Assembly (NCBI GenBank): GCA_973895155.1
Contig: OZ316892.1
Span: forward strand, 20,585,619-20,649,618
DNA length: 64,000 nt
DNA from: Marsupella aquatica
Lineage: Eukaryota > Plantae > Marchantiophyta
Direction: 5' to 3'
This document shows, one piece after another, positions 4,901 through 46,574 of this stretch. Each line of letters starts with the position of its first letter. Position 1 is the stretch's first letter. The notes under the pieces are model-generated. The model was not told the origin of the DNA, did not search any database, and worked only from the letters and a program-made list of their open reading frames with translations. The translations under genes and the position numbers were made by a program.

Positions 4901-6210
4901 TTTGTCTGGAATGAACCAACTAAGTATCTTTTACCCAAGTTGGCTGTTTTTCCTTGTTGCAACCTTGAAAAAAATTGTCTGAGTGTGAAACAAAGACACC
5001 ATCAAGTCAATCATAATGGGAAAATTTTGCTAGCCTGCAAGAACTAGACTAAATGTAGTACAAACCCACTATCCTGTAGTGGTGGATCCCTTAAAATTCT
5101 TTTAACTATGTGAAAATAGAATCCATTATGTCATCCAGCATAGATGTACGCGCGGTGGACTGTGATGCGGTGTGCGATGGATTGTGGTGGGAAATGTAAG
5201 GTTGACCATGCATTGTTTTAGGCATCACATAAGAACCATGTGTAGAAAATCTATGTAGGGGGCTAGTTGGTCACAACAATTTTACATTATGCATATCATA
5301 TCATTTTTGACAAGTTTCAAAGTGACACCCACTTATTTTGTCATAATTGGAACCTGAAATTCATTATTTTCTGAGCCAACCTGATCATCATTACGGTATT
5401 ATTCATCTACAGTGCAGTTACAGACAGGGGTCAATGGGATTGAGGACGCACATTTTTACTTTTGAGAATGGAAAATGATCACCAGTCCTATTGTTTGTTA
5501 TTTGCTTGTCTGCGGGCGCCAGGTTGATACTCAACGTTCCAGTGCCTGCAGGTTGATACGACCCAGTTACGGGACAGGTATAGTTTAGCCTTCGACTCTA
5601 GCTTAGTCCACGCTTCACCTACGGCTAGATAAGTACTGTTAGTATATGAAAAACTTCTGTACATGATTTGCTAACATTTTGTTACTTCATATCATAGATT
5701 CAATTCCTGCTTCAAACAAACGGAAATGTTGTTACGTACCCAGAGTTTAGCTGTCAAATACACGAGATCTAGTCCAGTGATGTACAGATAAAGTGCACAG
5801 CAGCCGCTTCCCTACTTCCGGTACTGCAATGATAAGAGCGACAGTTTAGTACCGAATAAACAAAAATAAAGCAATAGAGTATTTTTGTCAGCACAATCAT
5901 GGGGGTGATGCCGCAGGTGACGTAGTGCAGTCTGGTACGGAGACCCACTATTGTGCAACTACTGAACCATCAACCATTGTGAATATCTTTCGTGACCACA
6001 AATTGTATTTCTGCACCGCTTTTTGACCACAAATTGTTCCCCTGCAGGTCCTGACAGTACATGCTTCACTCCATGAGAACGTGAATTGGCTTCCATGTAC
6101 GGTATTGGGCAAGCAATAATGGACATTGGGAGGGACAGAGGTGAGCTCAGGATCCTACTTATTAGGGAAAGCAGAGATGGGCTCAGGATATTCACGGAGA
6201 CAGGGAGAGT

Positions 6211-6322
6211 AGTCCCTGCTAAAGCATTTAATATGCCTCGATTCTCCCCCACAAAGCCACCGGAAGGACCCCCCGTTTTCCCATCAAGCCAGGCATCCCC
6301 CCTCGTCACTTTTCAGGCAGGT
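6211..6322 (+). repeat. Left terminal inverted repeat
   Basis: 44-bp perfect core, then ccggaag, tttccc and tcacttttcaggc blocks matching the right copy in order. Confidence 0.9.
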
Positions 6323-7685
6323 AAACACTGCCCCTGCCAATTTGCCCGTGAGTAAGCCCGTGAGTAACTGTTTTTTACCTTTACATTCAGTTTTCACTCA
6401 ATTTTGACGCACAGTCTCGGGCTTAACCTGATTTGCAAGTCTGTGAAAGTCTGTGAAAGGAGACAACTATCGGGATTGGGTTTTTCTTCTTCTGTTTTTT
6501 CTGAAGTGGACGATGAACCGAGGGGATGAATCTCGAGTCCTTGATGGACTTTACACACTGAAAAAGTAAAGTAGCCCAGAAAAGACAATAGAGGATACAC
6601 AACGTAGCCCAGAAAGATCTACAAGGCAGCCCAGAAAAACAACAGAATTCTTTAAAAAAAACTTAGACAGATTTCTATTTATGTTATGACATCACCGGTA
6701 AATCTAATTTTCAAATTACTTATTAAATTCTTAACGAATGGTGACAATCCTGAGCTCATTAGGAGAGTCTCTCCAAGATCTTTCCGATGCTATATTATAT
6801 GTGACTTTTCATTGTGATTTGACTCAGAAATTTGAAATCGAAATTTGCAGCCGGGAAAAAAGTCGCGAAAATCTGAAATTTCGATTCATTGTAACTCATT
6901 CAAATCTAGACTAAAATCTTCGATGTTGGATTCTTTTGAAGCGGATTGACAAGATCTTTCTAATGTATCATAGCACTCCCAAATTTTGTTGTGGATTGAC
7001 ATATTGACTCATTAAATTCTTGCTGCAGAGAAAAGTTGATGGAAACTATCAGCTGCATGAAGCAACGGTGAAAAAACGAATTCAAAGACTGAACAGTCTA
7101 ATTAAGCAGAAGCAAAACCTACGATGCTATCGTTTCTCAATAAATTCATGGCCCGATTACTTACAAGTAACCATGGACGTCTGTCTGTGTTCAGTGTGTC
7201 TGGAATTCCTGAATGAAAATTGCTCAAAGCAACTCGGGTAAGAATGGACGTCTGCAATTTTCGTTTTGTTTGTTGCTTCCAGGCCAAAAGATGGCCATTT
7301 CTCGAGTCGGGCCAAATTGCTTATGTGGATGTAAGGAAATAATGAAAATTGCTCTAGAGGCAAAAAAGTTAACAATGGACATCTGTCGGCGAGTCTCATG
7401 TTACGCTGTTCTCAGAAGTCCAGTGCACTGGCTTTTAAAAGCGAGCTTGTAGGTTAAAGATCTTCCCGTTCTAAGCAAATTAAATGTTGGGTTATAAGTA
7501 AGGCTAAGCGCATGGCTGAACATATACAAAGGGAGCTTAAGTTCAAATCAATCAAATACACTGGTTAACCCAAATTTTATAAAAAGTCTCCGCATGACAG
7601 TACTTCGTCAAAACTCCATTGTATTGTATTCTTCAAAATGGAGGAACATTTCTATTTAATCCTTTATGTCTTCTACATAAGAGGC

Positions 7686-10600
7686 TTAGAATTGCCTTAG
7701 CTGACTTTCCAGAGAAATAATAGGGTATAGGGAAGACCACATGCCAACATTTGACACCTCATTTAGGCAAATAGGACTCATTCCAACCATACTTGACGTC
7801 TTCTCTTCTACAACTTTACTAACTTCCTGGCCAGGGGCCTTCTTCTGAATAGGTGGTTTGGGAGCTTGTTTCACAGGAGCCTTTTTCTGCCCAACTGGTT
7901 TCACCTTTGCAAGTTGTCTGGCATCTTTTTTCATCACCTGTGTTGCAGACGAGGTTGCACATGAATCTGTATTCTCAATGTCAACATTGTTTGCCTTCCG
8001 ACTGCTAACCTGTTTTATAGGCTTCTTGTAACGCCCCATTGACGCTGTGAGATGCCAATCGTGCTCCTGGTTGAGATCCAGACTTGCCAACGCTGCCTTG
8101 TCAAGTTTTTGCTGATCTGACTCTTGCACTGTAACAATTCTGACAAAGGGAGCTGCAAAGTTCTTTTCATTGGGGCCTCAGTCAAAGTTGAGCTTCTCTG
8201 TGAATTTGGTAAACGCCTTCCTCTCTTCCACATCTTGTCCACAAAAGACTCTTTCCTTTTCAAGCTACGGTCTGCCCCAGGTACAATTTTGAATGCAGGT
8301 GGATTTGGCATCTTCAGCAATGGAGTAGGCCCAATTTGTACAGAGTCATATCTAGCCCCAAGTGAAAAGATCTCATCTCGTAATTTTAGCAAGCCAGTCA
8401 TGCCAATGCTATTCAAATGAGGAATGCTCTCAACTTTACCATAAATCTCCTTTAAGACTTTTCATAATGCCCATAGCTAAAAGTTAGATCCTCCTTTTCT
8501 GGCTCACAATCCTCCAGTAGTGGCTCACAATCCTCCAATACAGGCTCTTCTACATTTGCCTGGTCTGAATCATTGCTGGCTGGATCCATATTAGGCTCTG
8601 GATCCATATTAGGCTCTGGCCACTGTGCCCTCTCAAATTTGAGCCCACCCACCATAGTTCCATAGGTTTGAAGAATCTTGGACTCACACATGCCACTCAT
8701 AAGCAACAATTTTATTTGTACATCAATAGAGAAACACAAGTAATATGAGACATTGTCATGATAATGTGTTTCATATTTCATATGAAATTACAGTTGTGGC
8801 TAGGTAAGATATAAATGCACCTGAAGCTTACAGGTATTACCTTGCATGCTGGATCCACAAGTGCACATGCAAGTATCATCGAAGTATCCTTCAAGGACGT
8901 GCCACTCTCCTGGCTTCTTCTGGCTACAAACAAATGCAACAGTGTTGCCTTCCTGATACTTGACATCATCTACAGGAATGCTCCTTGCCTTCAAGATGGT
9001 TTTCCAGATTATGTCTTCAATTTTCCGATTTCTGACCCGCCCTTGCCACTTCATATAAGACATACACCAATAGTGGTGTTCAAGATGGATAATCAATTGT
9101 TCTACTAGCCAAACAACCTTCCGCCCTACCTTAGTAGATTTCTCTTCCTACAAGTATCGCTTCAGAGTTCCATGCCATCTCTCAATCGCCCCATTGGTGT
9201 TCTGGTTGGCATGGTTGAAGCTCCTGAAGTTTATAACCCACTTATTGATCTTACAATGCCAGTATGTTCTGTAATACTCCACAAACACTAGTTGCTCATC
9301 TCCCCATGATGCCATGAACCGGAGGGACTCTTCGACAGGGTCTGTGAAAGAAAACAACACACAATCATGAAATAAGACAGAGCTTTCTGGAGACAAATAG
9401 GGTCAGAGTTTACCTTTGTTTTTCTGGTACATGAGGTCTCCAAGCTCTTAATTCATTCTGGCGCATGAATGGGGATCTCTTACTTTTTCCAGTATGTTTT
9501 TAGTCCATGCTCTCCTCACATCATGCCACACACATAAAGTGATTGGAACACCTGGCCAACCTCACTGCCAACGCAAATGGAGTCAGATGATATAATACAG
9601 TGACAAGGTGCTTTAATACTGGAATTTTTAAGCAACTGTGTTTGGGTGAAACTACCTTAACACATTCTGCTCTTCAGCTGCACAATCCACTATAAAACAA
9701 GCCGGAGCCCATGTCCTGTCTAGGCGTAGGTCATCTTGTTTGGTTCTTTCCATGGCTACCTTTACTGTAGTCAGAACTTGTAGTAAATCTCTCTCTTTGT
9801 GGGTCTCCATTAGAGCCCAACATGTGGAATTCCATTCTGGAATTCATCAAAACAGAGCACAGTGTACAAAGAATACTGTACATGCACACAGCCAAGGTTA
9901 CAATTACCACTTAAACTTTTCAAAACAGTAATATAAGTCAACCTGGAACCTGGAATAGAAACAAAATTTTAATGAGTATCACTAACCTCATACTCATTCA
10001 CACCAAAAGTGGCATCCATGGACACAGCACTACCATGCTCAAGAGTGGCCATTTTTTCCAGTTGCCACTCAGTTGCAAACACCAATAGAAAAGGAGTTTG
10101 TGTCTTCTCATCCCTCTCTTGGTACAATAACACTTGACAACCCATTAGCTTGCACCCACAATTTGCATCCCAGAGGATCATCACTCGCCCAATGACTTTT
10201 CCGACTGTTAATGGCTTTCTTGACATTTTGAATGTCCTTCAAATCTAGTCCCATGTCCCTTGTCCAGATTACATTGGCTCTGTCACTGAACCTCTTTCTA
10301 TGCTCACGCAGCTCTTCCCGTTGGGCCTTCAGAACTCCCAGTTCAGTGACTCCTGTTCGCAAGAGCCTTTCAATGCTCTCACAAAGGTCAATGGATATTT
10401 TGGGGGCAATGTGAGCCCCCACATCCCAGCAGATCTGTCCTCCCAACCATGACAAAAATTCCCTGTATTATCAACATGTTTGAACTCTATGAATTTCAAC
10501 AAGCAAGCATTGGGCCTTTCCATCTCCTTGAAATTCGCTGAAAAATTGAATCTACAGCCTCTCCTAAAAGACTCTCCAGTATGTGTAGTCTGTCGTAGTG

Positions 10601-10950
10601 GTTTCTCTCCATTTTGAAGAACTCTATTTTCTGGTAGATCTTCCCGGATGTCTCCCCTGGCATCTTTTGGTCCATAACAACAAAGATACCTGGCTTATGG
10701 TCAACCAACCACGTTCTTTGTTTCTTAATACTGTTTCTTTTATTTTCAGGCAAGTGTTAAATTTCTCACGACATTCCTCCCCTTTCAGGAAATCTTTGAG
10801 CCTGGATTTTGGAATCCAAGCTTCTTTTTTAAACCAGGTCAAATGATCAAAAGTAAACTTCCCTGGTGCTGGAATCTGGATTTGGTCACATTGTAATGCA
10901 CCATAGTGACGTCTTGATTTTTTGACATTCGAAGCATTCCCATCAGACAT
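7686..10950 (-). pseudogene. MULE (Mutator-like) DDE transposase with SWIM zinc finger, disrupted
   Basis: Joined frames give YLCCYGPKD...RGCRFNF...H (N-terminal zinc motif), SMDATFG (D1), FIVDCAAEE (D2), LCVWH, NTNGAIERWH (E) and CMCTCGSSMQGNTCK (SWIM, His lost). Several frameshifts (~10700, ~10420, ~10135), in-frame stops (e.g. 9148-9150) and GT-AG introns. The 3' end is approximate. Confidence 0.85.
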
Positions 10951-11189
10951 CTGACATTGAAAATAAAAGTGTAAGGACTAGTACTTGCAATTCAAAGAAA
11001 CAAAGCGTTTCTAATCAGAAATTACAGTTATTATTCTATTTCATTTACATCCAGTCACTTACTCTCTATAAATCTCAAAAAGTTTAAGCATGCAACAGGC
11101 TCTCGTCATTCACTGACACACAATCACTCTCAATATGTTCACACAAATATTGTTTTCCATTAGAATAGAACACACAGGGCACATCATTT

Positions 11190-11407
11190 GCATTACTCAC
11201 AGTTATTGTTATCATTGCATCAGATCTCATTGCAATGCATATTCTCAATTTAGTTTTTATTTACGCACGACTACTGTAGTTCTCATTGAGTTACATGCTT
11301 TCATTACTCACAATTACTATTATCATTGCGTCAGATCTCATTGCAGGGCATATGATTCTCAATTTAGTTTTTATTTACGCACGACTAGTTCTCATTGAGT
11401 TACATGC
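11190..11407. repeat. Tandem duplication (~110 bp x2) upstream of the MULE coding region
   Basis: cattactcaca...cagatctcattgca...ttctcaatttagtttttatttacgcacgacta...gttctcattgagttacatgc occurs twice. Confidence 0.8.
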
Positions 11408-11787
11408 CAGTCATCGCATTGCGTCTTCCTTCTATCGTATTGCGTCTTCCTTCCAATCATTAAATCTTTCTCAAAGCATAGTGTAAAACTGACATTTGTG
11501 TACAAAATGAATGTAGTCACTTACCTTGGAACACGATTTCGGACCGACCGAGAAGTGTGTCGGAGTTCTCGTTTAGCCCGATCCCGTTTTTTTTCTAAGG
11601 CAATGCAATGACCGATAAAATTGGAAAAAACTCTCCGAAACGCCACTTTCCTCCATTGCATCGCCGCGGGAATGCAGGGAGCGATACGTGCATCGGGTTT
11701 TACATTTCGTCAGTGAAAAAGTCCGAACTGCGAGTAACTTGGTCCGAACCGCGTAATCCAGGAACGACCACGCACTAACCCAGGTAA

Positions 11788-11850
11788 AGGGGAAACTTAA
11801 CCATGGTTAAGGGGAAATTAACCATGGTTTAGAGCGTCTCCTATATAAAG
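11788..11850 (+). promoter_or_regulatory. Putative divergent promoter: duplicated 21-22 bp unit containing a 16-bp palindrome, followed by a TATA box
   Basis: aaggggaaacttaaccatggtt / aaggggaaattaaccatggtt; CTTAACCATGGTTAAG at 11796-11811; ctatataaag at 11841-11850. Lies between the minus-strand MULE gene and the plus-strand cargo ORFs. Confidence 0.45.
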
Positions 11851-12442
11851 AGGAGCGGGCTGCCCATAAAACGTTTGCTTTCGCCAGAGCAAATATCTCC
11901 TGACTGAGAGCGAATACCAAACTCCCATCAAGTCTTACATTCCTCCCAAGCGATTCGACTCTTTCTACCGAAAACCCGATAAATTTATCGGAACAGCCAT
12001 TCCTGTTCAAGTTCTCCATGTAAGACTAACTAGTCATTTAGTGTAAAATGTCCAGATCCGAGCGGACTGCGATAAATTTATCGCATTTTGCATTCCTCTG
12101 TTGCAATCATTTGATCCAGTGTTTAGAGAGGTGTTGCCTTCATTCCGATAAATTTATCGGAGTCTTCATTCCTTTCATGGAAAGAGGAGTAATTGAGAAT
12201 CTGATAAATTTATCGGAGTTGTCATTTTTGTGAAAGATTGAATTCAGGGGTTAGGTGTCTGAGGAAGTCATATTTTCAATTCGAATGCGGAGTGCGATAA
12301 ACTTATTGCATCCTCCTGTGAGAATCATTTTCCTTTGTTTTGTTTGGAGACTCATCTTCATCTCTGATGTCGCAGTGTTGCCGGGTTTAGGAGGCACAAC
12401 GGAAGGTCGATTGCACTCCGTGGACAACAGGTATTGTGACAA

Positions 12443-12772
12443 ATGGCTGTCTTCCTTGAAAATTGTGTCAAACGTGCACGCCGGTTGTACAAGAGACTCG
12501 TGCGACTCAAAGTTCTCCCCATCGGTATAGGAGCATTGTGGATGGGTGGTACTGATCCTGGAGATAGGCAGAATCCTCTCCGCATTGAATTCTGCAGAAT
12601 GAATGATGCAGGAGTTCCAATTCGTTCAAGGTTGATGTTAACGGCGTGTTTACATTCTTTGGAGTTTTCTTGTAACTATTGTTGTCGTCGTCTTGACAAC
12701 AAGTACCACAAACAGGCTCACTTTTGTTGTAAGATTTGGAACGAAGACCCTTGGGTGAACCTTTCACGATGA
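12443..12772 (+). CDS. Small Cys/His-rich hypothetical cargo protein
   Basis: 109-aa ATG ORF with CLH..CNYCC..HFCC; co-oriented with the neighbouring cargo ORFs; no recognisable family. Confidence 0.35.
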   Translation: MAVFLENCVKRARRLYKRLVRLKVLPIGIGALWMGGTDPGDRQNPLRIEFCRMNDAGVPIRSRLMLTACLHSLEFSCNYCCRRLDNKYHKQAHFCCKIWNEDPWVNLSR

Positions 12773-12966
12773 GTGTTTCGACCTTTTCATTGAGGCGCGT
12801 CTTGGAAGGACATATTTAAATAAACAAGTCCTACCCTTGCGCAGCGAATATAATACGTCACGAGTCCTAATCGTTAAAATGTCGTGCAGGGTTGGTACTG
12901 TGGATGTGTTCGGTTACACCTGGTGATTGAAGGTATTTTTATTGGTGGTTTTGGTAGCTCTGCTTC

Positions 12967-13515
12967 ATGGCTGCATCGGAGAATCTAATCGTTGCAAAGA
13001 TGGGATCCATTTTAGCCCACGAGCGTAGGAAATATATTCGAGGAAAAGTGCCCGGTGTGGAATGCGGAAGTTTGTTGAATGGACTTCCTGATGAACTCGT
13101 TGAATCTCACATTTGGCCCCTCCTAGCCTTGTCTTGCACACAAGATGAACACCTTGGCCTTGACCTAAAACTTCTACCAGAAGAACGACTGACTCGAATG
13201 AGAACAATAATTTGTCTTGGAGCCACCTTGAAGAAATGGAACCATCTTGTTGTTGGTACACGATTTTGGGCGCTATTGAAATATGCAGTCCGTGAGATCA
13301 ATGACATAAACAAAATGCTCGCAAGCATTCCTAATGCCGACCTTCTCTCAAACCTACATATTGCTAGGGTCTTCCGAGAGGAAACTCATTTCCTCCCTCC
13401 CATAGATATGCTTGGGTGCTTTTCGTATGAGCAGTTAGATCAGTTTCGTAGAGTTTGGATAAATCTTGGAGAAAGCGGGAAGCGGACAATTCTTGCATGG
13501 CATGGACGAGTCTGA
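12967..13515 (+). CDS. Hypothetical cargo protein with F-box-like motif
   Basis: Uninterrupted 182-aa ATG ORF; LLNGLPDELVESHIWPLL and LGATLKKWNHLV resemble the two halves of an F-box. Confidence 0.55.
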   Translation: MAASENLIVAKMGSILAHERRKYIRGKVPGVECGSLLNGLPDELVESHIWPLLALSCTQDEHLGLDLKLLPEERLTRMRTIICLGATLKKWNHLVVGTRFWALLKYAVREINDINKMLASIPNADLLSNLHIARVFREETHFLPPIDMLGCFSYEQLDQFRRVWINLGESGKRTILAWHGRV

Positions 13516-13807
13516 GTGGATGAGGCATTGCTACGAACATCCGATAAATTTATCGCACTCCTCATTCCTCTAGTTGATTTTGGGTGCTTGTAAAGAAACA
13601 CTTTGAATATAATTGACTCTGCCTCCCCTGACTTCGGGTTGTGTGGTCTAGAGTGTATTTTTTTGCGCCTCTTCGGACGATTAGCTGACAAGTGCATTGG
13701 CTTCACAACCCGTTATACAAGGTACTGTAAAGTTGGATGAAACTTGTAGAATTGTAATTAGTATGTTCTCCAAAAATTATTCCTGATTTCTATTCGGTGA
13801 TCAGGCC

Positions 13808-14521
13808 ATGCTCGAGCGACGCATTTTTGTACCCTACCCGGATCCTCCAGAATGGGGGAATGGAGCCATGCTGGACCAGCTAAGGAGGCTGGATGAGTCA
13901 CTAATTTTAAAGATATGCAGGCTGGTAGTAAAACCATTTTACCATAACGCATTTCACTTCTACGTAGATCAGGTAGGGGGAGAAATTTATATTCGGTGGG
14001 ATAGATATGTTGGATTTTCTAGAAGAGTTATCCTACTCTTTCTGAAAACCGGTGCAGTAAGACGTTTTATACTCCACTGTTGTCATGTTGTGAAGGGCAA
14101 TCCTGCTTATGAGCCAGAATTCTATGCCGACAATAGACGTAGAGCATTCGATGAGATTCAGGATGTGATTGACGAGCTGGACAATCCTCTTGCCCCCGAG
14201 TTTTTTATTGACACTGGTGGGAAACTATATTCATACAAGATTCGTCAACTCCCCCCCCAGCCGGTCTGTGGGCTCTTTAACTTGATCTATGTAAGTTGCC
14301 TGTGGACGAACGTCCTTGCCAATGGTGAGATCTGTCCATGCTGCACAAATGCTTGTTGTGACATTCCGTCACGCCGGTATTCAGTAGCAGTAGTGAATCC
14401 TGAGACTGGTGAAGTTGATTTCCATTGGCTGTGGGCTTATGATCATCGCGTCACTCATATTCCCCAATGGCCCAAGAAGCGGATCGAACGCTTTGCTCTG
14501 GCGAGGTTCAACTATGATTAG
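13808..14521 (+). CDS. Hypothetical cargo protein, weak F-box-like N-terminus and Cys cluster
   Basis: Uninterrupted 237-aa ATG ORF; LRRLDESLILKICRLV; CPCCTNACCD. Confidence 0.55.
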   Translation: MLERRIFVPYPDPPEWGNGAMLDQLRRLDESLILKICRLVVKPFYHNAFHFYVDQVGGEIYIRWDRYVGFSRRVILLFLKTGAVRRFILHCCHVVKGNPAYEPEFYADNRRRAFDEIQDVIDELDNPLAPEFFIDTGGKLYSYKIRQLPPQPVCGLFNLIYVSCLWTNVLANGEICPCCTNACCDIPSRRYSVAVVNPETGEVDFHWLWAYDHRVTHIPQWPKKRIERFALARFNYD

Positions 14522-14741
14522 GGTTTAGATTTAGGGGTTAAGGTTTTGGATTTAGGGTTCCGTAGCTGATTCTTCGACCTGTACACTCGGCCGGAAATTT
14601 AAAGAAGGCTCACTTTTGCGATAATTTTATCGGTCTCTTTGTCCTTGTGTGATGAGATGTCGTGTCCACATGTGCTGTGAGATTGGCGGCGATAATTTTA
14701 TCGCTCTTTGCATTGGAATTTGTTTATTTGCAGACTTTTCC

Positions 14742-17700
14742 ATGGCTGCTAGTGGAAAGAGTGGATCTGCTGAGGCAGAAAGTCTCATGACAAGCCTCAC
14801 CAATGCAATTTGGACAAGTGAAGACATTTGTGAAGAGGTCAAGTGTATCAAGAAGTCATGGTACTTCCGTGACGCCAGATTACAGTCCACGGGTTTCGAA
14901 GACTGTGCTACCCCAATCCTTTGGGTCTAGTTGCAAAAATCGGCGAAAGTTAATGTTTCATATGGCCCTGTCATTGCTGTTGTCGTCGTCGAGTTCATGG
15001 TTGGCCACGGGGAGGGAAAAGTGTTGACAGAGGGCCTTAGTTTCTTGACAATGTGTGGGCGCAAGGGTTTCACATCTCTCATTGTTACTCTCGATAACTT
15101 TGATGAGAAATCGATGGACAGTTATCCAGAAGATCCCCTTGTTGCCAATGTTCGGGCAGCAAGAGAGATGAATGTTATGGGTTCAGCTTGGATTGGCCAG
15201 TATGTGCAAGATTGTGATGCCATCATGCTTCCAAGGGTGAACGCAGAGTTCAAACCTGTCCGCAAAATTGTTTTCAAGAAACCAGGTTCAAGTGGCAGCG
15301 GTGGTTCTAATGCCGATAAAATATCGGGGCGGAAAGAACCATTGCAATCCTCTACACATATTGACGTGGACGAACCTACAACTTCTGGTCGGGTTTCGGG
15401 AAGTGGAAAAGGGAAAGGGAGAGGTAGCGGCAGGGGAGATGCCGCGGGAACCTCTGACGGTGGGAAGAAGAGCCAGGAAACTGGCGGTAGTGGGAGAGGC
15501 CGGGGCAACCGTCGAGGACCATCCGCTAAACCAAGCGAAAGTAAAGGATCCGAGGGATCCGGGCCATCTGGTTCTGGACTTAGCACAAAGAGGAAGAGGA
15601 CTGGCTGGACTGAGACGGTGGCTGCAAAAGTAGATAGAGCTCCGTCAATTCCATCAATTCCAGTCGCGGTTCCTGCGGCGCCATTGGTAAGTACTACGTC
15701 GTTGTACTGTTTAACAAACACGAAATCCGATAAAAATCTCGTTGTTTATTTCCTGAATTGCGGATTGTGGAGTTATGTTGAACAAATGCGAACTCCGATA
15801 AAAATCTCGCAGTTTCTTTCCTTAATTGAATTTGCAACGCTTTTGTAGGCTGATCAGGAGGAGGAGACGGCTCTTTTGATGTATGAGACGGACGCGATCA
15901 AGGCAGAGCTCAATCTTCTGATGCAACGAAGGGTGCAAAGGACAACTGTGCTTCTGCATGTCGACAATCTCATATTTGATGAGGAGGGGGATTTGTCAAC
16001 TTTGATTAGACCAGTGGATAGATTGCATGTGGAAAATATCAAGATACTTCTCATGAAAAACCCCACCAACTTCAGTGCCCCGTTCGTGCTGTGTGTGGAT
16101 CCGAAGGATTGTCCCACAACCGCAGATTGGGACATCCTGAAGTCAAGGGGTATGGAAGTATAGAATTATTGGAGGGAATCATGGTGCTCAGGCAAAGTCC
16201 GAGTTGTTTAAAATGTACGGGAAGCAAATATATGGTGAGCTGGAAGCTTGGGTTTATGCTGGGCTTACGAGATCCGAGGTCCGAAAGTTAGGCTTCCAGC
16301 ATAACTATGACCAGGAGTATCGGAAGAACATGACTAAAATTGACCAAGTTCGCGCTTGTCACAATATTTTCCTTGAAATGGGTGTGGGCTCGACTAAAGA
16401 TGTCCGCGAAGCATGTTGTCAAGAATGCATGATGGAGTACACGCCAGGAGTTCGTGACTCCATGGCCAAACATGATCAGGCTTTCCAAATTGCTTTCCGA
16501 ATAGGTGAAATTTGGGATCTTCAGGAGAAGATTTTCCAGATGTGGGAGAAAGGTATTGTCTTAGGACAACCCAAAAAAATTGTGGCAACGACGAACGCAA
16601 AGGGAAAGGTAAAACCTTTGACGGTAAGGGAGATTAAAATGAATAAACTTGCTGGTGACCTCAACTTAAATTCATTTCGAGGTCTCCAAGGACTGTCAAA
16701 TAAGGAGCATGTCAAGCGTATCTTGAATAGGGTTATCGGGAAGGTGATCACTTTGGATCAAATGCACAAGGAAGGTGAGAAGTTGAAAAAGCTTGCCAAG
16801 GTGAAGAAACTATTTTTGCAGATATCTGGTCAGCCAGATTGGGCAACATGCAGAGAAATATTTCCCAACGAAACAGATGTCTCGGTCCTTGGCATATGGG
16901 CGGAGAAATTGAGTGATGCGGTAAGCATTCCTCTCACAGCATGCTCTATCACGAGATTTTTATTGGCTTTAGCATTCCTTTGTTGGTTTCTAAGCGATTG
17001 CATCTATTGGCTAGCGTGCTCCATCGCGAGATTTTTATCGGCTTTAGCATTCCTTTGTTGGTTTCTAAGCGATTCCATCTATTGGCTAGCGTGCTCCATC
17101 GTGAGATTTTTATCGGCTTTAGCATTCATCTCACGCTATTCTAACTGTAGATGTGTCTGACATTCTTACAGCTGAAAATTAATTCAAAAAGGAAAAGCAA
17201 AGTGGTTCCGGCTGTCACTTATAATTCTGCGGGGGAGGTTATTGTTCCCTCAGCTGAAATCCCTTATGTGTTTAAGAATTTTGTGCTTGCTGCAATCGAT
17301 AAGTACAATCGGCTGAGGTCCTTAGGCGAGGGCACAGCAGAAGCGTTTGAACAAACATGGAAAAATGCAGACGGGGATTCTTTTCCCTACTATCTCCATG
17401 TTGGTGATGTTCGAATTTTGGATTCTTTTGTTCAGCCAAGGGCTTACACCCTTGCGGTTGCGGATATTCCGTATGGTTTTAATGCTCCTGGTTCGGAGTT
17501 TGATGAAGTGGCCTTCACAGAAAAGGACATTTTAGACATGTTGACAAGTTTCTCAAAGATGAAGACCGCTAAGCAGTGGAGGTTTGTTGTGATCCATTCA
17601 CTACAACAAACGCATATGGTGATGTCTGCACTGGAGAGTGTATGCAACTGTGGGGTCGAGGCTGGAATCTAGGAGAAGACTAACATTCATGAGCGTCCCG

Positions 17701-18284
17701 CTGGAGCTCGATTGGCGTGGGGTTTTGAGAACTGGTCGATAGGTTTCTATAGCGAGGAAGGCATTCGGAACATGAACATGTACAATTTCCAACCGGATGA
17801 GTCTCGCGTCAATATCATCAAGGTTCCATGTGTAACCAAGAAGTCCGTTGATCCGTTGGGATTTGTTGTGAACCCATATCAGAAGCCTGTTGGTTTAGGG
17901 GCTTGGTTTGTTTCCCATTTCTCTGAGAAAGAGGATTGGGTTATTGATCTTTGTTGTGGAACCGGATCGACATTAGCTACTACGCTCCTCAATTCTCGCC
18001 AGGGTTGTGCTGTTGATAAGAGTTCTGCGCAGATTGGTTTTGTAAAATCCCGGATCATGATTCTGGAGTCAAACTGGAATTTATATGAAGAATCCCAGAT
18101 TGAAGGGCACGGCGTTGAAGGTCATGAGATTCAACCACCAATTGCAGGCCAATTGGGTGTACTCGGGACATCGACTTACGTAGTTGAGGTCGTGAAGGAG
18201 ACCGAAGAGGAACAAGAAGAAACTGAGGAAGAGCCTCCCAGAACACCAAATGAGGATGATCTCAACGACATGTTATTAGATTAG
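14742..18284 (+). pseudogene. ParB/Srx-like domain fused to a beta-class N6-adenine/N4-cytosine DNA methyltransferase (~1040 aa, 3 exons), disrupted
   Basis: Exons 14742-15686, 15849-16920 and 17172-18284, joined by phase-0 GT-AG introns. ParB-like: IRPVDRLHVENI..APFVLCV..YRIIGGNHG..AWVYAGLT..HN. MTase: motif IV DIPY (17463-17474), I[W*]EK, PYQKP (17874-17888), motif I VIDLCCGTGST, RQGCAVDKS. Lesions: TAG at 14928-14930, +1 frameshift ~16147, TAG at 17670-17672. Confidence 0.88.
16938..17127. repeat. 75-bp tandem repeat x2.5 in intron 2 of the ParB-MTase gene
   Basis: Read-through translation repeats every 25 aa; each unit carries a CGAGATTTTTATCG-type site. Confidence 0.9.
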
Positions 18285-18611
18285 TTGCGTGTGCTCGTTA
18301 GGATAATGTCAATCACCAATGAAGTTGTCGATAAATTTATCGACTTCTGTATTCCATGAGGAAGAACCTTTCTCACATTTATTAATGCGATAAATTTATC
18401 GGACTTTGCATATATCAGACTGTCGCGGTGTTCCTGCTGGGGGAATGGAGTTGTCGATAATCTTATCGGACAACATTGTATTCTCTAACTGGTTTGTCAT
18501 TGCAATTATTTAAAAAAAAGATATCATTATAGCTACGGAGTACATAGTCCCAGAACGATAACCACTGTACATATTCATGGGAACGATAACCATTATAACT
18601 TAAACCTGAAA

Positions 18612-21600
18612 CTAGCTTCGACTATCAATGACTACAGTCTCCATTGCATTTTGAATGATTCGTCTTGTTTGTATAGGGAGAGTACTATTTGCCAATAACG
18701 CAAAGTTATACGCATAAACGGCAGTTTCTGATAGGGACAATTCATCCTCCAGTACTTTGCTAGACGAAGCCTCTTTCTCCGGATAATATCTGCCTTCAAT
18801 TGCAGACTCTTCCTCCGAATCCATGGCATACCAAGTGATTTTAATCCGCTCCGGGATGTCGTTAATTCTTGTGAGAATCTCAGTCACTTTTGCCATCCAG
18901 AATGGTCTTCCCTTGGGATCCTGATGGGCTGCTACACATATCATTGCAAATTTAGTATTCACCTCTAGATCCTTGAAGTCTCCAATTTCTGTGACTTTTC
19001 TTCGACTTCCGGAATACATGACTGTCCTCACACCCGCTACTTTATCAACCAAGCTAGGTTCCATTGCTGCTTCCGTAGGATTACTCGGAAGTTCTCTCTG
19101 TACGTTTACCTTGGGCCAACTCCAATCAAAACTCCATTGTGCAGGTTTTAGGTGGTGCTGAATCACTTCTTTTTGTTTGTCAAAAAAATGACCCCACCAT
19201 AGACGATCTGCGTCGTCAAAGTAATTGAATCCATCTTCAATTGCTCTTCGATATTTTTGAAGAGTTGACAAATAACTTTGAGCCGCTCGCTCATCTTGTT
19301 CCTCAGCATCATTCTCTTGCTCTTCATTGTCTCCTGTCGCTCCCGTGGCCGACTTCAATGCCATTTGTGGTGCGACCCACATTCCAGATGATGGAATGTA
19401 CCGAACAAAATCCACCGTCTCCCCCCAATCGATTGTCGTTGAAAGATGTTTGGCATGGAATATGGACCGAGCACTTCCATCTTTGAGTACTCTAGTAATC
19501 CGAAATTGTTTTTGAGCACTTATGTCGTGGAGAGTACGTAGAACCTGACCATCCATATCCTTGTCATTTGCTTGATCTTTGTCTGACACAAATTTCTTGA
19601 AATCGGCAACCTCGTCGATGAAAAATATCTTTGCCGTAGGATTGTAGGATTCCTCTATGATTGCTGAAAGAGTGTCCAACCGGAAAGCTTTTCGCTTGTT
19701 CAATTTTGAAGAAAACTTGCTAAACATTTGATCAATTTGATCATGGGTGTGCCCCACCAATAGGAAACCAACCTTTATTTTCTGGAAAACACCTATCTCC
19801 ACCAACATATTCAAATATGTCATAAGATATTTATTCTTGTTTTCCCGAGCTGTGTTATCAAGCTGGAGGTAAAGCACTGGAGGGAGCAGACCTTCCCAGG
19901 TATTTAGAATATGCTGGATAACGTGGATGGTCAGGTTGCTATCATTGTGAATATTTGGATAGTTCAAAAAAACATTTGAACTTAATTGTTTATTGAAGAT
20001 CAAACAACCCACTACGTGTACGGGGATGAAATACTTTTCATCCATATTCTTCGGACACCGAATGAAATGAGGTAACTCTGTCTTCTTTTGATCCATTCCA
20101 TCAATACAGATGCCCAAATATTTCTCCGGACTCTTGTAACATTTGCTCCGGTGCTTTGCTAACTTCTCCCTCTCGACTGCTTGTGCCTTCCGATGCTCGT
20201 TTAGCAATGTTGAGAATTTTCCTACAATAATAAAAATGTTTAGGACAAAACATGATAACCGCAATGTTGAACCCTGACAGCGATAAATTTATCGGGTTCA
20301 GTATTCAAACACGAGACCGTAATGATAAACCTTGACAGCGATAAATTTATCGGGTTCAGTATTCAAACACAAGACCGTAATGCAAAATTGTGACAACGAT
20401 AAATTTATCAGGTTCAGTATTCAAACTGTTCAAACGATATATTCACTCACATGGCCAAAGAAGAAGCACATGAATACTCAACCCGATAAAATTATCGGGA
20501 GTAACACACAGGTTTAGAAACTTGCTCTTTTCTGCTTCGAGTGTTGCCTAGTCACGGAGTGCTTTGAATTCAGTATACGGGGCGCAGGTGGAGAAATGGC
20601 TCCTTTTGGGGATGCGCACGCGAGGAAACTCCTTGTTCCAAATGCGAACAAACCACGAATATGTCATGCCTTGTTCTTGGCGCATTAGAGTTTCGGATTG
20701 GAAGGCATCAAAAACTTCTGTTTTTGTCCAATTGTCAGGTAAATGAAAGATATCCTTGTTGGGGAGACTCTCGATATTTGTGGAAAAAAAATCATCTAGC
20801 CATTGGACGAGACCAAGATGTGCGGGTGATTTTTCTCGACAAATTGTACCGATCTGTATCCGAGAAAACATGTTCTTCGAGATTTTTTGGAGACGATTAT
20901 TTCCTAGTGAAAATAATTTCTTAAAACCACTTCGACAAAAGGATCTACCGCTAACTGAGTAACCACTTGCACCAGCATGCCCACCCTTCACACATCCTCT
21001 TAGAAGGACGTTCTTCTTTGGGTAGGATAGCCCATAGTAATAAGTGCGTTGTTTCGTCACGGCTAGCAGACCCAAATTCCGCAGACAGTAATTATCACAA
21101 CACGAATACTTATGAATTTATCTCATTTTATTTCTATTCAATTTGTCATTTATCACATTGTCTTTCCTAGTAATTCGGTCCCTATCTTTTTTACTAGGCT
21201 CATTTGACTTCTCTACAACCTGAAATCCATTCATAACATTGGCATTTTCGGGTCCTTCAGGTGCCTCGCAAATAGATGCATCACTCTCTGCTGAGCTACC
21301 ATCCACTATAGATCTCCTTGACGCATTTAGAGGGGCACTGAATAGACGACTATAGCTATTCTCTTCGACAGCTCCTTCTAAACATTCAGACACAACTTGT
21401 GCTATTATATCGGATTCTCTATCTCCTTCCTCATCTTCGTCCTCCGATGCACTCGACTCATCTGAAAACACAATTGGACTCCGTGGCTCTCTATACATAA
21501 CCCGAACGCCACTAAGACCTCTCCTCGATACTTGGAGCCTGGAACCAATGACAGTCCGCCCTTGAGAACTTGGAGATTCTGGATTCGCACGTGCAGTCCC

Positions 21601-22203
21601 AACGACTCTGCGAGCTGCTGGAAAATTGAGCACTTGTTCACCACGATTCCCACGGACCATTTGAGAAAGGGCCGAGTCTGGACTTCGCAGTCCGATTCCC
21701 TCGCTTGCTCGCACATCCAATCCAGGCAATGCAAAGACCGATCGCCGTATCGGTCTTTGTATTTCTGTGTCCCGATCCTCACCCGGAGACTGAAAGATCC
21801 ATCGTTGAACTTGTGTTGAATGTGGCGACTTGAATGCCGACTGTGATACGCGTATCGGTCGCCGGATACCCTCTCCATAACCCGGGATGGATGGCCTGAA
21901 GCGACGTCTCGGACCTAAACTTGGGATTGAAAGTTTCTCATTTCTTGGCGATGGAACGCTCAAGCGACGACGCTTCTCAGGTTTACTAGGCGACACATAG
22001 TAAGCACTGGGCTCAGGACCAGAACTTGCATCAGAATCTGAGTCAGAGATTTTGGGCACTATTTGTTGTGAGAGAGGTAGAGCTTTAAGTATGCGACTTG
22101 GCAAACAGCGAGCGATAAGATTAGGAGAGGATTCAACTGAACTGGAAGGTGAATCTGTGTCTGATTGAGACATGGCTATCCGAGACACTATGGGGCTTTG
22201 CAT
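18612..22203 (-). pseudogene. DUF7869-like (Sola-like) DDE transposase, ~1095 aa, 2 exons, with nonsense codons in exon 1
   Basis: Exon 1 22203-20526 (Ser/Arg-rich N-terminus, CCDNYC, FCRSGF, WFVRIW..FP.VRIP..S.FSTC) has in-frame stops at 21118-21120 and 20548-20550. Phase-1 GC-AG intron 20525-20222. Exon 2 is open: IDGMDQKKT..PH, NDSNLTI, LYLQLDNTARENKN, FLLVGHTHDQIDQMFS. Confidence 0.8.
20272..20427. repeat. ~58-bp tandem repeat x3 in the transposase intron
   Basis: tgacagcgataaatttatcgggttcagtattcaaac repeated, with palindromes at 20281, 20339 and 20397. Confidence 0.9.
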
Positions 22204-22317
22204 TCCTCCCACAATCAGGGAAAACGAAAGGCTCAACGGACAGAATGTTGCTCCAAGAACACAACTCCCAAAACTCTACTCTCGATAATGACGCCAAAAA
22301 GTTATCGGCGGTGGCCC

Positions 22318-22366
22318 TTTTATAGTGTCTGTTGAGGGGTTGGCCCACGTGTCCACTTTTGATTGG
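22318..22366 (-). promoter_or_regulatory. Putative core promoter of the DUF7869-like gene
   Basis: On the minus strand: CCAAT (22362-22366), G-box CACGTG (22346-22351) overlapping TGGGCC, then TATAAAA (22324-22318), ~115 bp upstream of the ATG. Confidence 0.5.
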
Positions 22367-22459
22367 CTGTCACCCTAAACGACAAAATAGCAGAAAAGGG
22401 TATATTTCTTGGATTTCCAATTTCATTCTCACACGTGCATCGTGGCAAAATTATATAGT

Positions 22460-22650
22460 TTTGAAATTGAAGCGATAAATTTATCTGATGTTGGTATTGC
22501 AAAAGTGGTTCCTTCATATGGAAGTTGCAATTTGAAATTGAAGTGATAAATTTATCTGATGTTGGTATTGCAAAAGTGGTTCCTTCATATGGAAGTTGCA
22601 ATTTTGAAATTGAAGCGATAAATTTATCTGATGTTGGTATTGCGAAGAGT
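22460..22650. repeat. ~71-bp tandem repeat x3
   Basis: tttgaaattgaag(c/t)gataaatttatctgatgttggtattgc... with palindrome variants at 22473, 22544 and 22616. Confidence 0.9.
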
Positions 22651-23357
22651 TTTCTTCATATTGATAGGAATTTTGAAATTTAACCGATGAACCGAAGGAT
22701 CTTAGTATTGTCGACTAGTATTTTTGTCGCCCGTAGTTTTCGCGATAATTTTATCGGACTGCACATTGTTGTTGAAAGAATGGCATGTTGACTATGGTCA
22801 CTTGCGGAGGTAACTGGTCAATTGCGGAGGTAACTGCAAGGTAAGTTTGACGAACCGTGCAGTAATTCTTATCGACTGTGATGTAAAATATTTTTGGTAA
22901 ATATCCAAAAACTGAGAAACCTGAGATTGGGTCGGAGTTTTCGTAGCTCAAATCCGGAGTCCAATACAGTTATCGCACTTGGCTCGAAACATGGATATGG
23001 ATTTATAGATAAGACCTTTCATATATCTTCGGAGAGCGTGAATATGAGGTCGAGGAGAAATTTTTTCGGATCTAATTGTTCCTTGATAATATGAATGTTT
23101 GTTAGCATGAATTTCATTGGTTTTGATCATTATTAAATTTGCTGTTTCAATCCGAACTCCGATACGAATTACATTATTTCCCCAAAAACGCATTTTTGAT
23201 GAAAAAAACTGTCGATTTCGCGAGATTCGGCGGAAAATGAAAATACACTTCTTGTTTAGAGGAAATAGTTCTCGTTCGGTCCGAAATCGTGTTTTGGACT
23301 TGTATTTCACGGCATTTCACCTTCCGACAAGTTTTTCTTTGCAGCATGCCAAGGTTT

Positions 23358-23435
23358 GATCATTCATTCGACTCCCTGCCAACATATGACGCCGTCTGCT
23401 GATCATTCATTCGACACCCTGCCAACATATGACGC
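23358..23435. repeat. ~42-bp direct repeat x2 in the right subterminal region
   Basis: tgatcattcattcgac(t/a)ccctgccaacatatgacgc occurs twice. Confidence 0.85.
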
Positions 23436-23741
23436 AGTCGCTATCAACTAAGTGTTTGGGCCTGGCTACATACATTTCGAATCATTCCTGGCACTGGCAA
23501 GTGATGCCAAAAATCTGCACTTTTGCACTGCCATCTCCATGAGACCTCTGTGCCAAGGTCGACTACTGCACATAACATCGGGCATAACATTCATGCTACA
23601 GTGGTAAGACAGAGTACAGGCTATTGCTTTCACGCACATGCATAAAAGAGTACCTTCAGTTGGGATATTCCTGTGTAACCCTAAAGTAAATTCAGGAAAG
23701 TCAGGAACTGACAGGGCGGGCACAGGCAGCAAGAAAAACTA

Positions 23742-23852
23742 ACCTGGCCTGAAAAGTGAACAGGAGGTGCTGTCTGGAAGGGGAAACACGGTGGGCTCTT
23801 CCGGTGAGTTGTGGGGGAGAATCGAGGCATATTAAATGCTTTAGCAGGGACT
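23742..23852 (-). repeat. Right terminal inverted repeat
   Basis: Reverse complement of 6211-6322; perfect over the outer 44 bp. Confidence 0.9.
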
Positions 23853-26438
23853 CGTATCCGTGATCTCAGGATCAGTCGTTAATTTTCTGGGACACTGATG
23901 GTATTGACGGTCAATAATGTTGCTGCTACCGTAGTACTTGTTGGAACCATGCGCGATTCAATTCGTCATGAGGTTTTCTAAGCACTCAACTACCCAACAA
24001 ACATACGTGCAATTGCAATAAAGATTATATTTCTTTGCATGGAGCATGATTTGTGCAGAATCATCTTATAGAGTTCAACCTCCTTATTTCTTGGACCCAA
24101 CATGTACTGTAAACGTGCGTATTGTAGCATCATTTCTACATAATCTCTTATAGAGTGAAACATCTTTATTCCTTTTCCAACACATTCCATATGTATGAAT
24201 CGCATTCATTGTTCACTGCCTAAAATGCCTATTGTTTGTGTTGCTGGGCTATAATACGCTACGGTATTGACTGGGACCATGATTGAGTTCTCAATATAGC
24301 ATGCTCATCCTGAACATGCTTGAATTTTTTGTCTTGTAGTGATTTGAAAGTAAATAAAATATGAGAACATAATTAGAAGGATTAGTGCATAGTGACCAAT
24401 AAAAAGTACAATCAAGGATGCTACGATGTCTACACTTAATTCAATGTACTCATGAATGAAAAACCATAAACTTAGGAAAGAAAGACATAAGAGTAACTTA
24501 AGACACAATCAGAACCATTTCTCTCACTCATGAGAATACTTTGTTCAAGTGGTGGAGGCTTTTGGTTCATCTCTGATAAATCACAAACATCAAAATTTAT
24601 AAGGGGGCTGCCATAATAAGTCCAAAATACTCTAGAATCCTAAAATTAAAGGGATCCATAAATTAAATAAAAATGTATATTATACACAGGCTGCCCCTTG
24701 ATAAGGCACATTGAAATAAAAATATATGACACCAAAACTCTGAAAAGGTGGATTCACCATATAGCAGTTTCATAAATTTTTGAGGACAAATCAAAACCTG
24801 TGATGACTATTTTCTAGCAAAGACGAAGATCGACGTGTTTGTCGGCAATGCATCCTCGAGTACTGAGTTTAGGGCCAGGTCATTCTTGCGGTGCGCACAT
24901 CATGTCGTCGAGAACGACTTGTCCTCCTGTTTCATCTTGATTCACAAAACCCGTAGAATTGTGTGGATATGTTTAAGTAAGGGTGGTTTGGTCGCTCAAC
25001 GGGCAAGTTCCTAGAGTATAATACTCCTCACTTATGAGAAGGTTAAGTTTTCTCAAACATATATACAACGGAAGGGCCTGGGTGGAGATTGCAATCAAAG
25101 CTTTCAAGAGTTTTTGTGACCATTTTGCCATTACTCATCAAAACCCACCACTTGCCTTGTAGGGCATACTAGCCTCGAAGTGACCACCAGATGTATTCTA
25201 CAGTCGAGAATGATTCCTTGTCTATGAATTCCAGGTTATTGTCGATAGCAAAGACTTTCCATGCTTCGAAACTCCTGTCCCTTCATTTGCAATTGCTTAT
25301 CTGTTGAATTGCGTCCATAATACCAAAGGGTCCTTTGTAAACCAATCGTTTCCACTCAATTGCAAAACTGTTTGTATGCACTGGAGGAAGATTTGAACCT
25401 CTGAGTCAACATGCGAATATCTGGGCTGATGGGATCCAGTTGCCTAGTATAGATGTTTTAAATATGACAAAAGTTTGTTCCTGCGTGCAGAGGCAAGCTG
25501 TCTGGCAGTAGCACCGTTTTTATATCAAACGTTTCCTTCCATGGTTAGCATTTCAGGCAGAGTTTCTTTGAGGGAAGGACTTGTCAGATTAACGCATGCT
25601 GATGCAGTTCAGTATCCAATTCAAGTTCAGAACTGTTGAGTTGTTTTGAAGGGAGATCTTGTCTGATGAACCCAGTTTGATCCAGTTCAACATCCAATGG
25701 AAGTTCAGACTTCGGGAACAGAATGATCGGCAGAGATGCTGGACCAGAGTCATCTGGTCATAGATCTTCTCTGGTTCTACCCCTAAGTGACAATAGACTG
25801 GTTTACAATTGCTACCGAGTTTATGGGTAGAATTTCTCCCTTCCACTAATCACTAGCGATCAATAAGCTCCTGCTTTCTCTCATGACTCCAAACATCAAA
25901 TCGTCAAGAAACCTTGCGCTGTTGAAAAAAGCAGGGTTATCTGGTTCCAAGGAGTTACGGTTCGAATGTATACGGGTGTCCAAATGTCAAGGCAGTGGTT
26001 CCCACTTCAAAGGCGGTGAAACAGCTTCTATTAAAAAAAACATTTTCAGTTAATATCCTGTGGGTTCCGAATAAAATTGCCATGAGATCAACTGGTAGCC
26101 TGTGCGGAAAACCATTCCCACTCCCTTTATTGCTTTCATAATCGAGCTAATGTCGATGGACGGGAAACAATGACAGCCATCTTATGCCGACTGAATCTAT
26201 ACAGAGTAAAGTCTGATCTCATTTTCAAACCAGGAAAATGTTTCAGTCAAGTGGTACAGAAAGCACCATCGCTATTCACACTACTAATGTGCCTTGTCCT
26301 ACCTACGCCTGCACACAGTTCCCTCACTTCCCTGGGCACGCCGCCTCTCCTATATTTACAGTTGACATTTGCTGGACCGCATTATAGGGACCAATGGAAT
26401 AAAGAGTAGCTGCCAAAATTGTATTCACATTCATCACC

Positions 26439-45700: not shown

Positions 45701-46574
45701 GTTGCAATGTTTCGCGGATAGCTTGCTCGGAACAGACTCTTTTCAGAATACACGAACTTTGCCATATCCGGAGATGTGACTACAATCGAGGGTACTCCAG
45801 CTATATGAGATCTGAAGACAGGTCCATACCTGCAATCCATTTAATTGCAAAAACTTTCAGAATTTATCACACCTTAGCCCAGCTGACATTCGAATGACTG
45901 AAACTGATGATTTCTAAAGTGAAGGCTCTTACGGCAACAAGCCATTTGGGGATTCGTCCTCCAATCTCTTTGCTTCAATTTGAGAGTATCGTAATTTAGT
46001 GTTAGAGCTGGAAGGTGCACTCTCTCTAGACCCACTATCACAGGGTGGGAGAAAAGGAGTAAACTTCCCTGGTCGAAGGGACGGGAATTGTTCGGCAGCC
46101 ACAGCCCAAATTTCTGGAGAAATATTTGCCGACCTATTGACTTGAAATAGTGCGAAAAATGAATGAGCTACTTCACAATGACTTCAGTGAATTCATCCAT
46201 TCCTTGCGTCCATACGTTCATTCATTCATCGGTCTGTCGGAATGAAAGAAGTAAAGAGTTAATGTGCAACGATGGTCTTACTTCTTCACGCGAGGCGTAG
46301 CGAACTCGACAGGATCGGCATTCGCAAAAGCCAGCGTTTCTCCGATCAGGGGCCACCCCTTGGACCCTCTGGGAATTTTAGCCTTCGAGTTCCCGTAAAT
46401 GCGTTGCCGCAGCGCACGATTCAGGACCACCCATAAGAGAAGGAGAACAGCGGCTCCCAGCACGATTGCCACCGCCACAGGATCCTCCATTCCGTCCCAC
46501 ATCTTCACGTGATCCCCGCACCACGAGACGATACGTTTCACAGCCGAGACCGGGCAACTAAATCCCCCAGACAT
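42768..46574 (-). CDS. Cytochrome P450, CYP85 clan, CYP707 (ABA 8'-hydroxylase)-like
   Basis: Multi-exon gene: TM anchor and PRGSKGWPLIGETL, YGPVFRSHI, I-helix GAHDTTA, ExxR (QETLR), YLIPKGW, FDPSRF, heme motif PFAGGNHVCPGNELAK; stop TAG at 42770-42768. Confidence 0.92.

Follow-up and report, generated by a model that had tools for sequence, protein, structure and literature searches.

We analyzed a 64,000-nucleotide stretch of DNA (the window) from the liverwort Marsupella aquatica (assembly GCA_973895155.1, contig OZ316892.1, positions 20,585,619 to 20,649,618) and found that it holds an 11.8-kb transposon, the inner element, inserted into an older outer element. The inner element carries a DUF7869 transposase gene and, tail-to-tail with it, an accessory gene predicted to encode a ParB-like region fused to a beta-class amino-methyltransferase (MTase), and a spaced palindrome, CGATAAATTTATCG, recurs in its non-coding DNA. 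Judged from its sequence, the inner element extends the ParB-like/MTase transposon design published for algae to land plants, with a named candidate target site.

An inner element inserted into an older outer element

The initial annotation had read the locus as a single 17.6-kb element bounded by one inverted-repeat pair. Comparison of the window with itself confirms that pair at ~6211 and 23852, but a second inverted pair lies at 11530-11561 and 23262-23293 with TTGG on either side, and there are two nested elements instead of one:

11530..23293: inner element, a Sola1-like cut-and-paste transposon of 11,764 bp, delimited by terminal inverted repeat (TIR), target site duplication (TSD), depth edge, flanks and empty site
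6190..23864 (6190-11529 plus 23298-23864): outer element, older, MULE-like, ~5.9 kb, delimited by contig divergence and a direct repeat
7686..10953, minus strand: outer transposase-like gene, presumably of MULE/SWIM type, with many stops and frameshifts

The inner element has the termini AACACG...CGTGTT, an imperfect TIR of ~26-32 bp and a 4-bp TSD, which in this one insertion is TTGG at 11526-11529 and 23294-23297. Contigs from four of seven listed sequencing runs (X1, X2, X4 and X5; three organism labels and three studies, with X1 perhaps from the source of the window itself) were mapped to the window; their depth does not equal copy number. Depth falls across 23293 from 2810 to 46 in X1 and from 7178 to 112 in X2, with a drop in all four runs, and contigs at this position enter unlike flanks (12 in X1, 13 in X2, 4 in X4 and 2 in X5). 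Mean depth in X1 is 614-2372 for bins 11770-23595 versus 37-283 for bins 6514-11112. The empty site, 11525 joined to 23294 with a single TTGG, appears in one contig each of X1 and X2. The depth edge, the diverse flanks and the empty site fix the right end; the left end is placed by the TIR, the TSD, the empty site and an X5 contig that ceases to match at 11530.

A 461-bp X1 contig at depth 510 is 99% identical to the window copy, differing by 5 letters and 1 gap, and because unique flank contigs in this run have depths of 11.5-19, this suggests that the inner element exists as tens of near-identical young copies. One X4 contig jumps 9,973 bp, from 12322 to 22296, keeping both ends and the outer palindrome clusters, and is possibly a non-autonomous deletion derivative.

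Without its insert the outer element measures 5,907 bp. Its right end is at 23863-23864 rather than 23852, with 5 and 7 contigs diverging behind 23863; the left end is placed by symmetry, probably at 6190, and the 8-bp direct repeat CTCAGGAT occupies 6182-6189 on one side and 23865-23872 on the other. Its transposase-like gene had no match in Pfam, and the 5′ exon of this gene is interrupted by the inner element near a splice donor at ~11525. We take the element to be a MULE (MULE/SWIM) from its motifs and TSD length. Both transposase genes of the initial annotation are present, but they do not share one element: the DUF7869 gene (Pfam E 4.7e-49) belongs to the inner element, and the second, which is broken, to the older outer one.

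The accessory gene, the palindromes and their surroundings

The inner element is laid out as follows (ORF, open reading frame; SAM-binding, S-adenosylmethionine-binding):

12443..12772, plus strand: ORF0, 109 aa, an ORF that may not be a gene
12967..13515, plus strand: cargo ORF1, 182 aa, called as an ORF
13808..14521, plus strand: cargo ORF2, 237 aa, called as an ORF, C-terminal part Cys-rich
14742..18284, plus strand: ParB-like plus beta-class amino-MTase gene, ~1,040 aa predicted from splice signals and homologues with the same start
15849..16920, plus strand: ParB/Srx-like region, then a helical region (R..D..HV..I...PFVL...YRIIGGNHG...WVYAGLT...A.QHN)
17172..18284, plus strand: MTase exon, motif IV ADIPY ahead of SAM-binding motif I DLCCGTG (beta order)
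18612..22174, minus strand: DUF7869 transposase gene
11977..22756, no strand: palindrome sites, mostly CGATAAATTTATCG, in clusters 56-127 bp apart, from a pattern scan
11977-12308: sites in the left leader and first intron
13542; 14619 and 14690: further sites
15728, 15796; 16952, 17027, 17102: sites in the MTase introns
18329-18468: sites in the 3′ spacer
20281-20497: sites in the transposase intron
22473-22756: sites in the right leader

The three small ORFs and the spliced gene ending in an N6/N4-MTase domain are present as initially annotated. Predicted exons of the latter run 14742-15686, 15849-16920 and 17172-18284. The window copy of the inner element is dead, with two stops (14928-14930 and 17670-17672) and an extra base (~16147) in the MTase gene and two stops (21118-21120 and 20548-20550) in the transposase gene. 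Our search for intact copies succeeded in part: elsewhere in the family, 17670-17672 is TGG and the surplus base at 16147 is missing. The remaining three lesions did not appear in the best 40 of 1,729 difference rows. A fully intact copy is likely to exist elsewhere. We rejected the possibility of a single-copy host MTase, in keeping with the initial annotation.

The transposase gene has one intron (~20223-20523), and its acidic motifs IDGMD, LDN and GHTHDQID, which we take to be the Sola DDD triad, are intact in all six aligned sequences. Pfam gives DUF7869 alone for this protein, and the placement in Sola1 rests on the likeness of termini and TSD to the entry for the Ectocarpus element Sola1-1_Ec32.

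To characterize the MTase part, we used 20 homologues (244-398 aa) found with a fragment from L001, a metagenome relative of the inner element; 19 of them come from metagenome or run assemblies only. The window exon is 45-68% identical to them. NPYQK and motif I occur in all 20, and motif IV, absent from the query, reads AD[IVL]PY in 19, the twentieth being cut short. A fold model of one homologue, P0001 (58% identical to the window exon; mean predicted local distance difference test score, pLDDT, 63, with a higher core), matches CcrM, M1.HpyAVI, rotifer N4CMT, PvuII and RsrI (best E 1e-12) as well as phage N4/N6 MTases, with RNA m6A enzymes among the lower hits. By this model and the motif order, the MTase part has a beta-class amino-MTase fold of the PF01555 type. 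Compared with L001, the proportion of nonsynonymous differences (pN) is 0.27 for the MTase, with the synonymous proportion (pS) saturated, and a similar 0.24 for the transposase, indicating that the MTase is under purifying selection. We think it probable, from these sequence features, that the enzyme is active on DNA. The catalytic motif is DIPY, DVPY or DLPY in 19 of the 20 homologues and not the SPPY of eukaryotic N4-methylcytosine (4mC) writers, and for this reason we lean slightly towards N6-methyladenine (6mA) as the product. DPPY-type enzymes usually write 6mA and SPPY-type enzymes 4mC, with repeated switches in the family, according to the parts of PMC8885841 consulted.

The front part of the protein is harder to name. 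The initial annotation called the gene a ParB-MTase fusion, and while motifs and fold bear out the amino-MTase, the ParB domain had no Pfam, PHROG or PDB profile match (elsewhere in its sequence, one family member matched PF08775 at E 0.16). When 14 stretches from the family, trimmed by choice, were compared with five phage ParB_N domains by HH-align, the alignment ran in register at E ~0.07, pairing GNH with GH.R and AGLT...A..N with LT...A..N; shuffles matched the score in 1/20, 3/100 and 9/100 cases. An Atlas lead for the region (0.87-0.90) was not significant, and a single-sequence fold of the exon reached pLDDT 35, too low to be of use. We regard the ParB label as plausible on sequence grounds. 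The exon had no tblastn match in phages, and word-based searches of longer proteins with it and the MTase exon returned nothing. Locus scans were empty for the ParB-like exon in metagenomes and viral genomes, for the MTase alignment in viral and prokaryote genomes, and for the transposase in prokaryote and viral genomes, and thus give no hint of a close source in prokaryotes or viruses.

The ParB-like exon has 104 representative homologues, 15 of which also match the MTase profile, as do 13 of the 23 that are at least 500 aa long. Names among the 20 looked up include Chara braunii, Riccia sorocarpa, Adiantum nelumboides, Ginkgo biloba, Holothuria, Ptychodera and Clastostelium. Plant proteins with the region are P0062 (Ginkgo), P0081 and P0086 (Adiantum), P0058, P0063 and P0077 (Riccia), and P0043 and others (Chara); several of these carry the MTase too, and the fusion has homologues in Chara, Riccia, Adiantum, Ginkgo and animals. 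Multiple paralogues suggest mobile copies in Chara and Riccia. In P0054 and P0135 the region is fused to a SAM or Tudor-like domain that replaces or accompanies the MTase.

Between 6211 and 23852, CGATAAATTTATCG occurs 8 times exactly, 16 times with up to one mismatch, 19 with up to two and 25 with up to three, against expected counts of 0, 0, 0.17 and 1.5 (30 order-3 Markov simulations). The figure of ~25 palindromes in the initial annotation is thus reached at three mismatches, with only 19 at two and 8 exact. All sites with up to two mismatches (11977-22743) fall within the inner element. The rest of the 64-kb window has no match, and a palindrome common across the window was rejected on this basis. 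The widened pattern CGA(T/G)A-N4-T(A/C)TCG, with one mismatch allowed, gives 28 sites in the inner element versus 0.8 expected, a single site in the outer 5′ part and two across the remaining 47 kb. Non-coding DNA makes up 32% of the inner element and holds 26 of the 28 sites (p 3e-11), consistent with the initial claim that the palindromes are nearly all non-coding.

Nine loci with related transposases (36-65% identity) were retrieved using the transposase as the search key, most on short contigs. Three of the nine keep the half-sites with a CC-rich spacer, L001 (4 sites), L004 (7) and L007 (2), in the corresponding transposase intron and 3′ spacer, which shows that the motif is conserved as half-sites. 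L001 also has the tail-to-tail MTase and transposase pair of the window. The co-occurrence of MTase, DUF7869 transposase and palindrome proposed at the outset holds in full for L001 and for sites with transposase in L004 and L007; L002 and L003 show no site in their covered parts. L005 and L009 have no site and L008 has one. L006, a more distant Sola-like relative (42% identity), has a different palindrome, CATGATATCATG, five times, once within the transposase intron; its regions lie at 660-730, 1915-1995 and 3410-3425, with a divergent ORF at the left end of the locus.

Some smaller features accompany these genes. A family search of the three small ORFs, including Pfam, found no family; the LPDEL..HIWPLL of ORF1 is, by eye, presumably F-box-like. 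A degenerate TTTAGGG run at 14518-14560, directly 3′ of ORF2 and upstream of the MTase gene, which we take to be telo-box-like, may belong to the MTase gene promoter. At 11842-12025 there is a TATA-like box and a splice donor (~12020), with four palindromes in the first intron. A bacterial promoter and terminator scan gave chance-level results and is not applicable to this DNA.

Elsewhere in the window, 24294-24744 is a separate ~450-bp repeat of very high depth with many different flanks in three runs, possibly a miniature inverted-repeat transposable element (MITE) or resembling a short interspersed nuclear element (SINE). A further inverted pair (50084-50134 and 56051-56101; 51 nt, 80%, 5.9 kb apart), in a region depleted in CG and CHG, is perhaps another decayed element. 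Host genes nearby are a sirtuin (Pfam SIR2; 27484-28068, minus strand) and a CYP90-like P450 exon (45358-45840, minus strand), whose nearest solved structure is CYP90B1, which fits a land-plant host.

What the accessory protein may do

That the accessory protein binds and marks the palindromes of its own element is, in our judgement, the leading reading, at about even odds. The ParB-like front part would grip the palindromes and the fused MTase would methylate them or adjoining DNA, and we moderately favour a protein dimer that recognises a pair of CGA(T/G)A half-sites separated by four bases. A protein bound to, and marking, the leaders, introns and 3′ ends could keep the genes open against host 5-methylcytosine (5mC), with intact copies supplying the proteins in trans, the window copy being dead. 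The site layout mirrors that of VANC sites, which speaks for self-marking; that the purpose is anti-silencing, as VANC serves VANDAL elements, is a tentative proposal made by analogy. The observed/expected CpG ratio is 0.87 in the inner element versus 0.41-0.58 around it (0.41 in the outer 5′ part, 0.55 on the right side), and 0.75 versus 0.27 when coding DNA is compared. This CpG retention points to low long-term 5mC in the inner element.

Several observations weigh against self-marking. ParB was significant in no test we ran, and the arginine of the ParB CTP-binding (cytidine triphosphate) box, G.HR..A, is replaced family-wide by GGNH(G/S/T/C). CTP clamping as in ParB-parS is doubtful because this arginine is absent; a phage ParB which switches on an enzyme that modifies DNA is described as functioning without these residues (PMC13229309, consulted in part). 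DIPY also deviates from the canonical DPPY. The palindrome pattern was widened after the relatives had been viewed, only one of the nine loci (L001) reaches the MTase gene, and L002 and L003, with 62-65% transposase identity, have no site in their covered parts, which in L002 include the transposase intron. High CpG can alternatively come from recent arrival or from constant selection in active copies. Finally, among the best-supported rows listed, the window copy differs from the family majority at 26 positions; 17 of these are C>T or G>A changes, of which 13 lie at CG/CHG versus 35% of C sites (p 6e-4). Since the C>T changes are concentrated at CG/CHG, the window copy was probably 5mC-methylated.

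This anatomy would equally suit a protein that marks its sites to restrain or time transposition, with methylation damping the genes and hemimethylation after replication licensing jumping, for which Dam-type control of IS10 and Tn5 transposition is the model. The 5mC scars of the window copy mean that any protection is at best partial, and rotifer N4CMT, of related fold, is reported to mark silent transposable elements (PMC8885841, in part). However, the TIRs are without sites, the first good site being 447 bp from the left end, and CpG retention indicates low long-term 5mC, and we consider restraint or timing unlikely. A single 17.6-kb element with two transposases that moves as a unit is very improbable and was rejected as the main unit. 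Here everything does lie between the outer repeats, and giant Ectocarpus elements are described as still mobile after nested insertions (PMC12477816, in part), but against this stand the roughly ten-fold depth step, the inner TIR and TSD, the variety of other flanks joined at 23293 and outer copies that lack the insert. A rare composite copy of both elements at a second locus is possible.

The palindromes, which contain GATA, could also serve a different protein, whether the transposase, one of the cargo products or a transcription factor of the host, with the MTase target elsewhere or short and common. Transposases can activate cognate copies (10.64898/2026.08.24.746577, seen in part), ParB is unconfirmed, and the motif in relatives is tied to the transposase gene, which was itself the search key. 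Yet the sites flank every gene, fill both MTase introns and do not cluster at the ends, and in the unrelated Plavaka elements ParB-like genes lie beside inverted-repeat arrays, which ties arrays to the accessory gene rather than to a particular type of transposase (10.1101/2025.02.11.637652, consulted in part); we find this alternative improbable. A catalytically dead or RNA-directed passenger retained as a binding scaffold is less probable again. It would suit the non-canonical DIPY, the DAPY, DLPY and DFPY of distant homologues and the DIPH of Ginkgo, and RNA m6A enzymes arose from the beta fold too. Motif IV, NPYQKP and motif I are nevertheless kept across 20 homologues of 48-89% identity, and the best fold matches are DNA MTases.

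Returning to self-marking, two 2025 papers propose, in the parts consulted, that accessory proteins combining ParB with an enzyme bind their own transposon and modify it, and the window family suits a direct test. Its copies are numerous and near-identical, the majority alleles lack two of the lesions, and there is a 14-bp candidate site whose grammar is common to relatives, with the outer element, which has no CGATAAATTTATCG sites, as a built-in control. The accessory protein might also give rise to local 6mA or 4mC in gymnosperms as well as seed-free plants. A broader and rather doubtful extension is that land plants from liverworts to Ginkgo harbour a family of transposons that write their own 6mA or 4mC: a ParB-like reader would recognise a spaced palindrome specific to each family and the fused methylase would mark it, as a private self-label against 5mC silencing. 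If true, this would be a system of sequence-specific DNA amino-methylation not yet described from land plants, and nature's own programmable tool against silencing.

Comparison with known systems

The initial annotation knew of no such architecture in plants. Our literature search, which covered few subscription papers, likewise found no land-plant report of a ParB-like/MTase transposon design, but the design itself is not new, since Sola1 with a ParB-like/N4-N6 MTase has been published for Ectocarpus and ParB with inverted-repeat arrays for red algae. The available text of PMC7466625, on moss transposable elements, mentions neither Sola nor methylases, and that of a 2015 survey (PMC4738411) describes land plants as poor in N6A-MTases.

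Phage proteins L010-L014 share the order ParB_N then N6_N4_Mtase and are the nearest prokaryotic MTase matches (24-29% identity). They are ~410 aa long and have the canonical G.HR box (consensus G.HR..A), unlike the window protein, in which the box arginine is missing, the N-terminal part is long and a helical spacer spans 250 aa; its gene has introns. MpDN4MT1 of Marchantia and N4CMT of bdelloid rotifers are, like the window MTase, bacterial-type amino-MTases in eukaryotic nuclei (10.1101/2021.02.12.428880, PMC8885841), and N4CMT is a top fold match of the P0001 model. As described in the parts consulted, both are host genes, have a (T)SPPY motif and write 4mC; neither has a ParB-like part or is carried by a transposon.

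In Arabidopsis VANDAL elements, short motifs that vary between related families have multiplied in introns, between genes and in terminal non-coding DNA (PMC5735166, in part), and an element-specific motif is likewise amplified in the non-coding parts here. VANDAL elements are MULEs, whereas here gene and motifs sit in the inner Sola-like element and not in the outer MULE-like one. VANC is not an MTase and its motifs are 8-9 bp and non-palindromic; anti-silencing has been demonstrated for VANC, according to the same source.

The Plavaka (EnSpm) elements PAG2 and PAG3 of Bostrychia are, like the window family, giant DNA transposons with a methylase (PF01555), a ParB-like protein and inverted repeats, the latter in arrays, and self-binding has been proposed for them in a preprint that cites Iyer et al. 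2011 for green algae (10.1101/2025.02.11.637652, seen in part). They belong to another superfamily, with ParB fused to a 2OG oxygenase, the MTase fused to SET, and tandem arrays beside one gene.

A close counterpart by description is Sola1-1_Ec32 of Ectocarpus, a 21.5-kb Sola1 element of a brown alga with an opposite-strand gene for a ParB-like/N4-N6 MTase, for which self-modification has been proposed; the available text of PMC12477816 names no target palindrome. The two elements share a 4-bp TSD, similar termini (AACCG...CGGTT there, AACACG...CGTGTT here), an accessory gene opposite the transposase, and a ParB-like plus N4/N6-MTase protein of 1,104 aa there and ~1,040 aa here.

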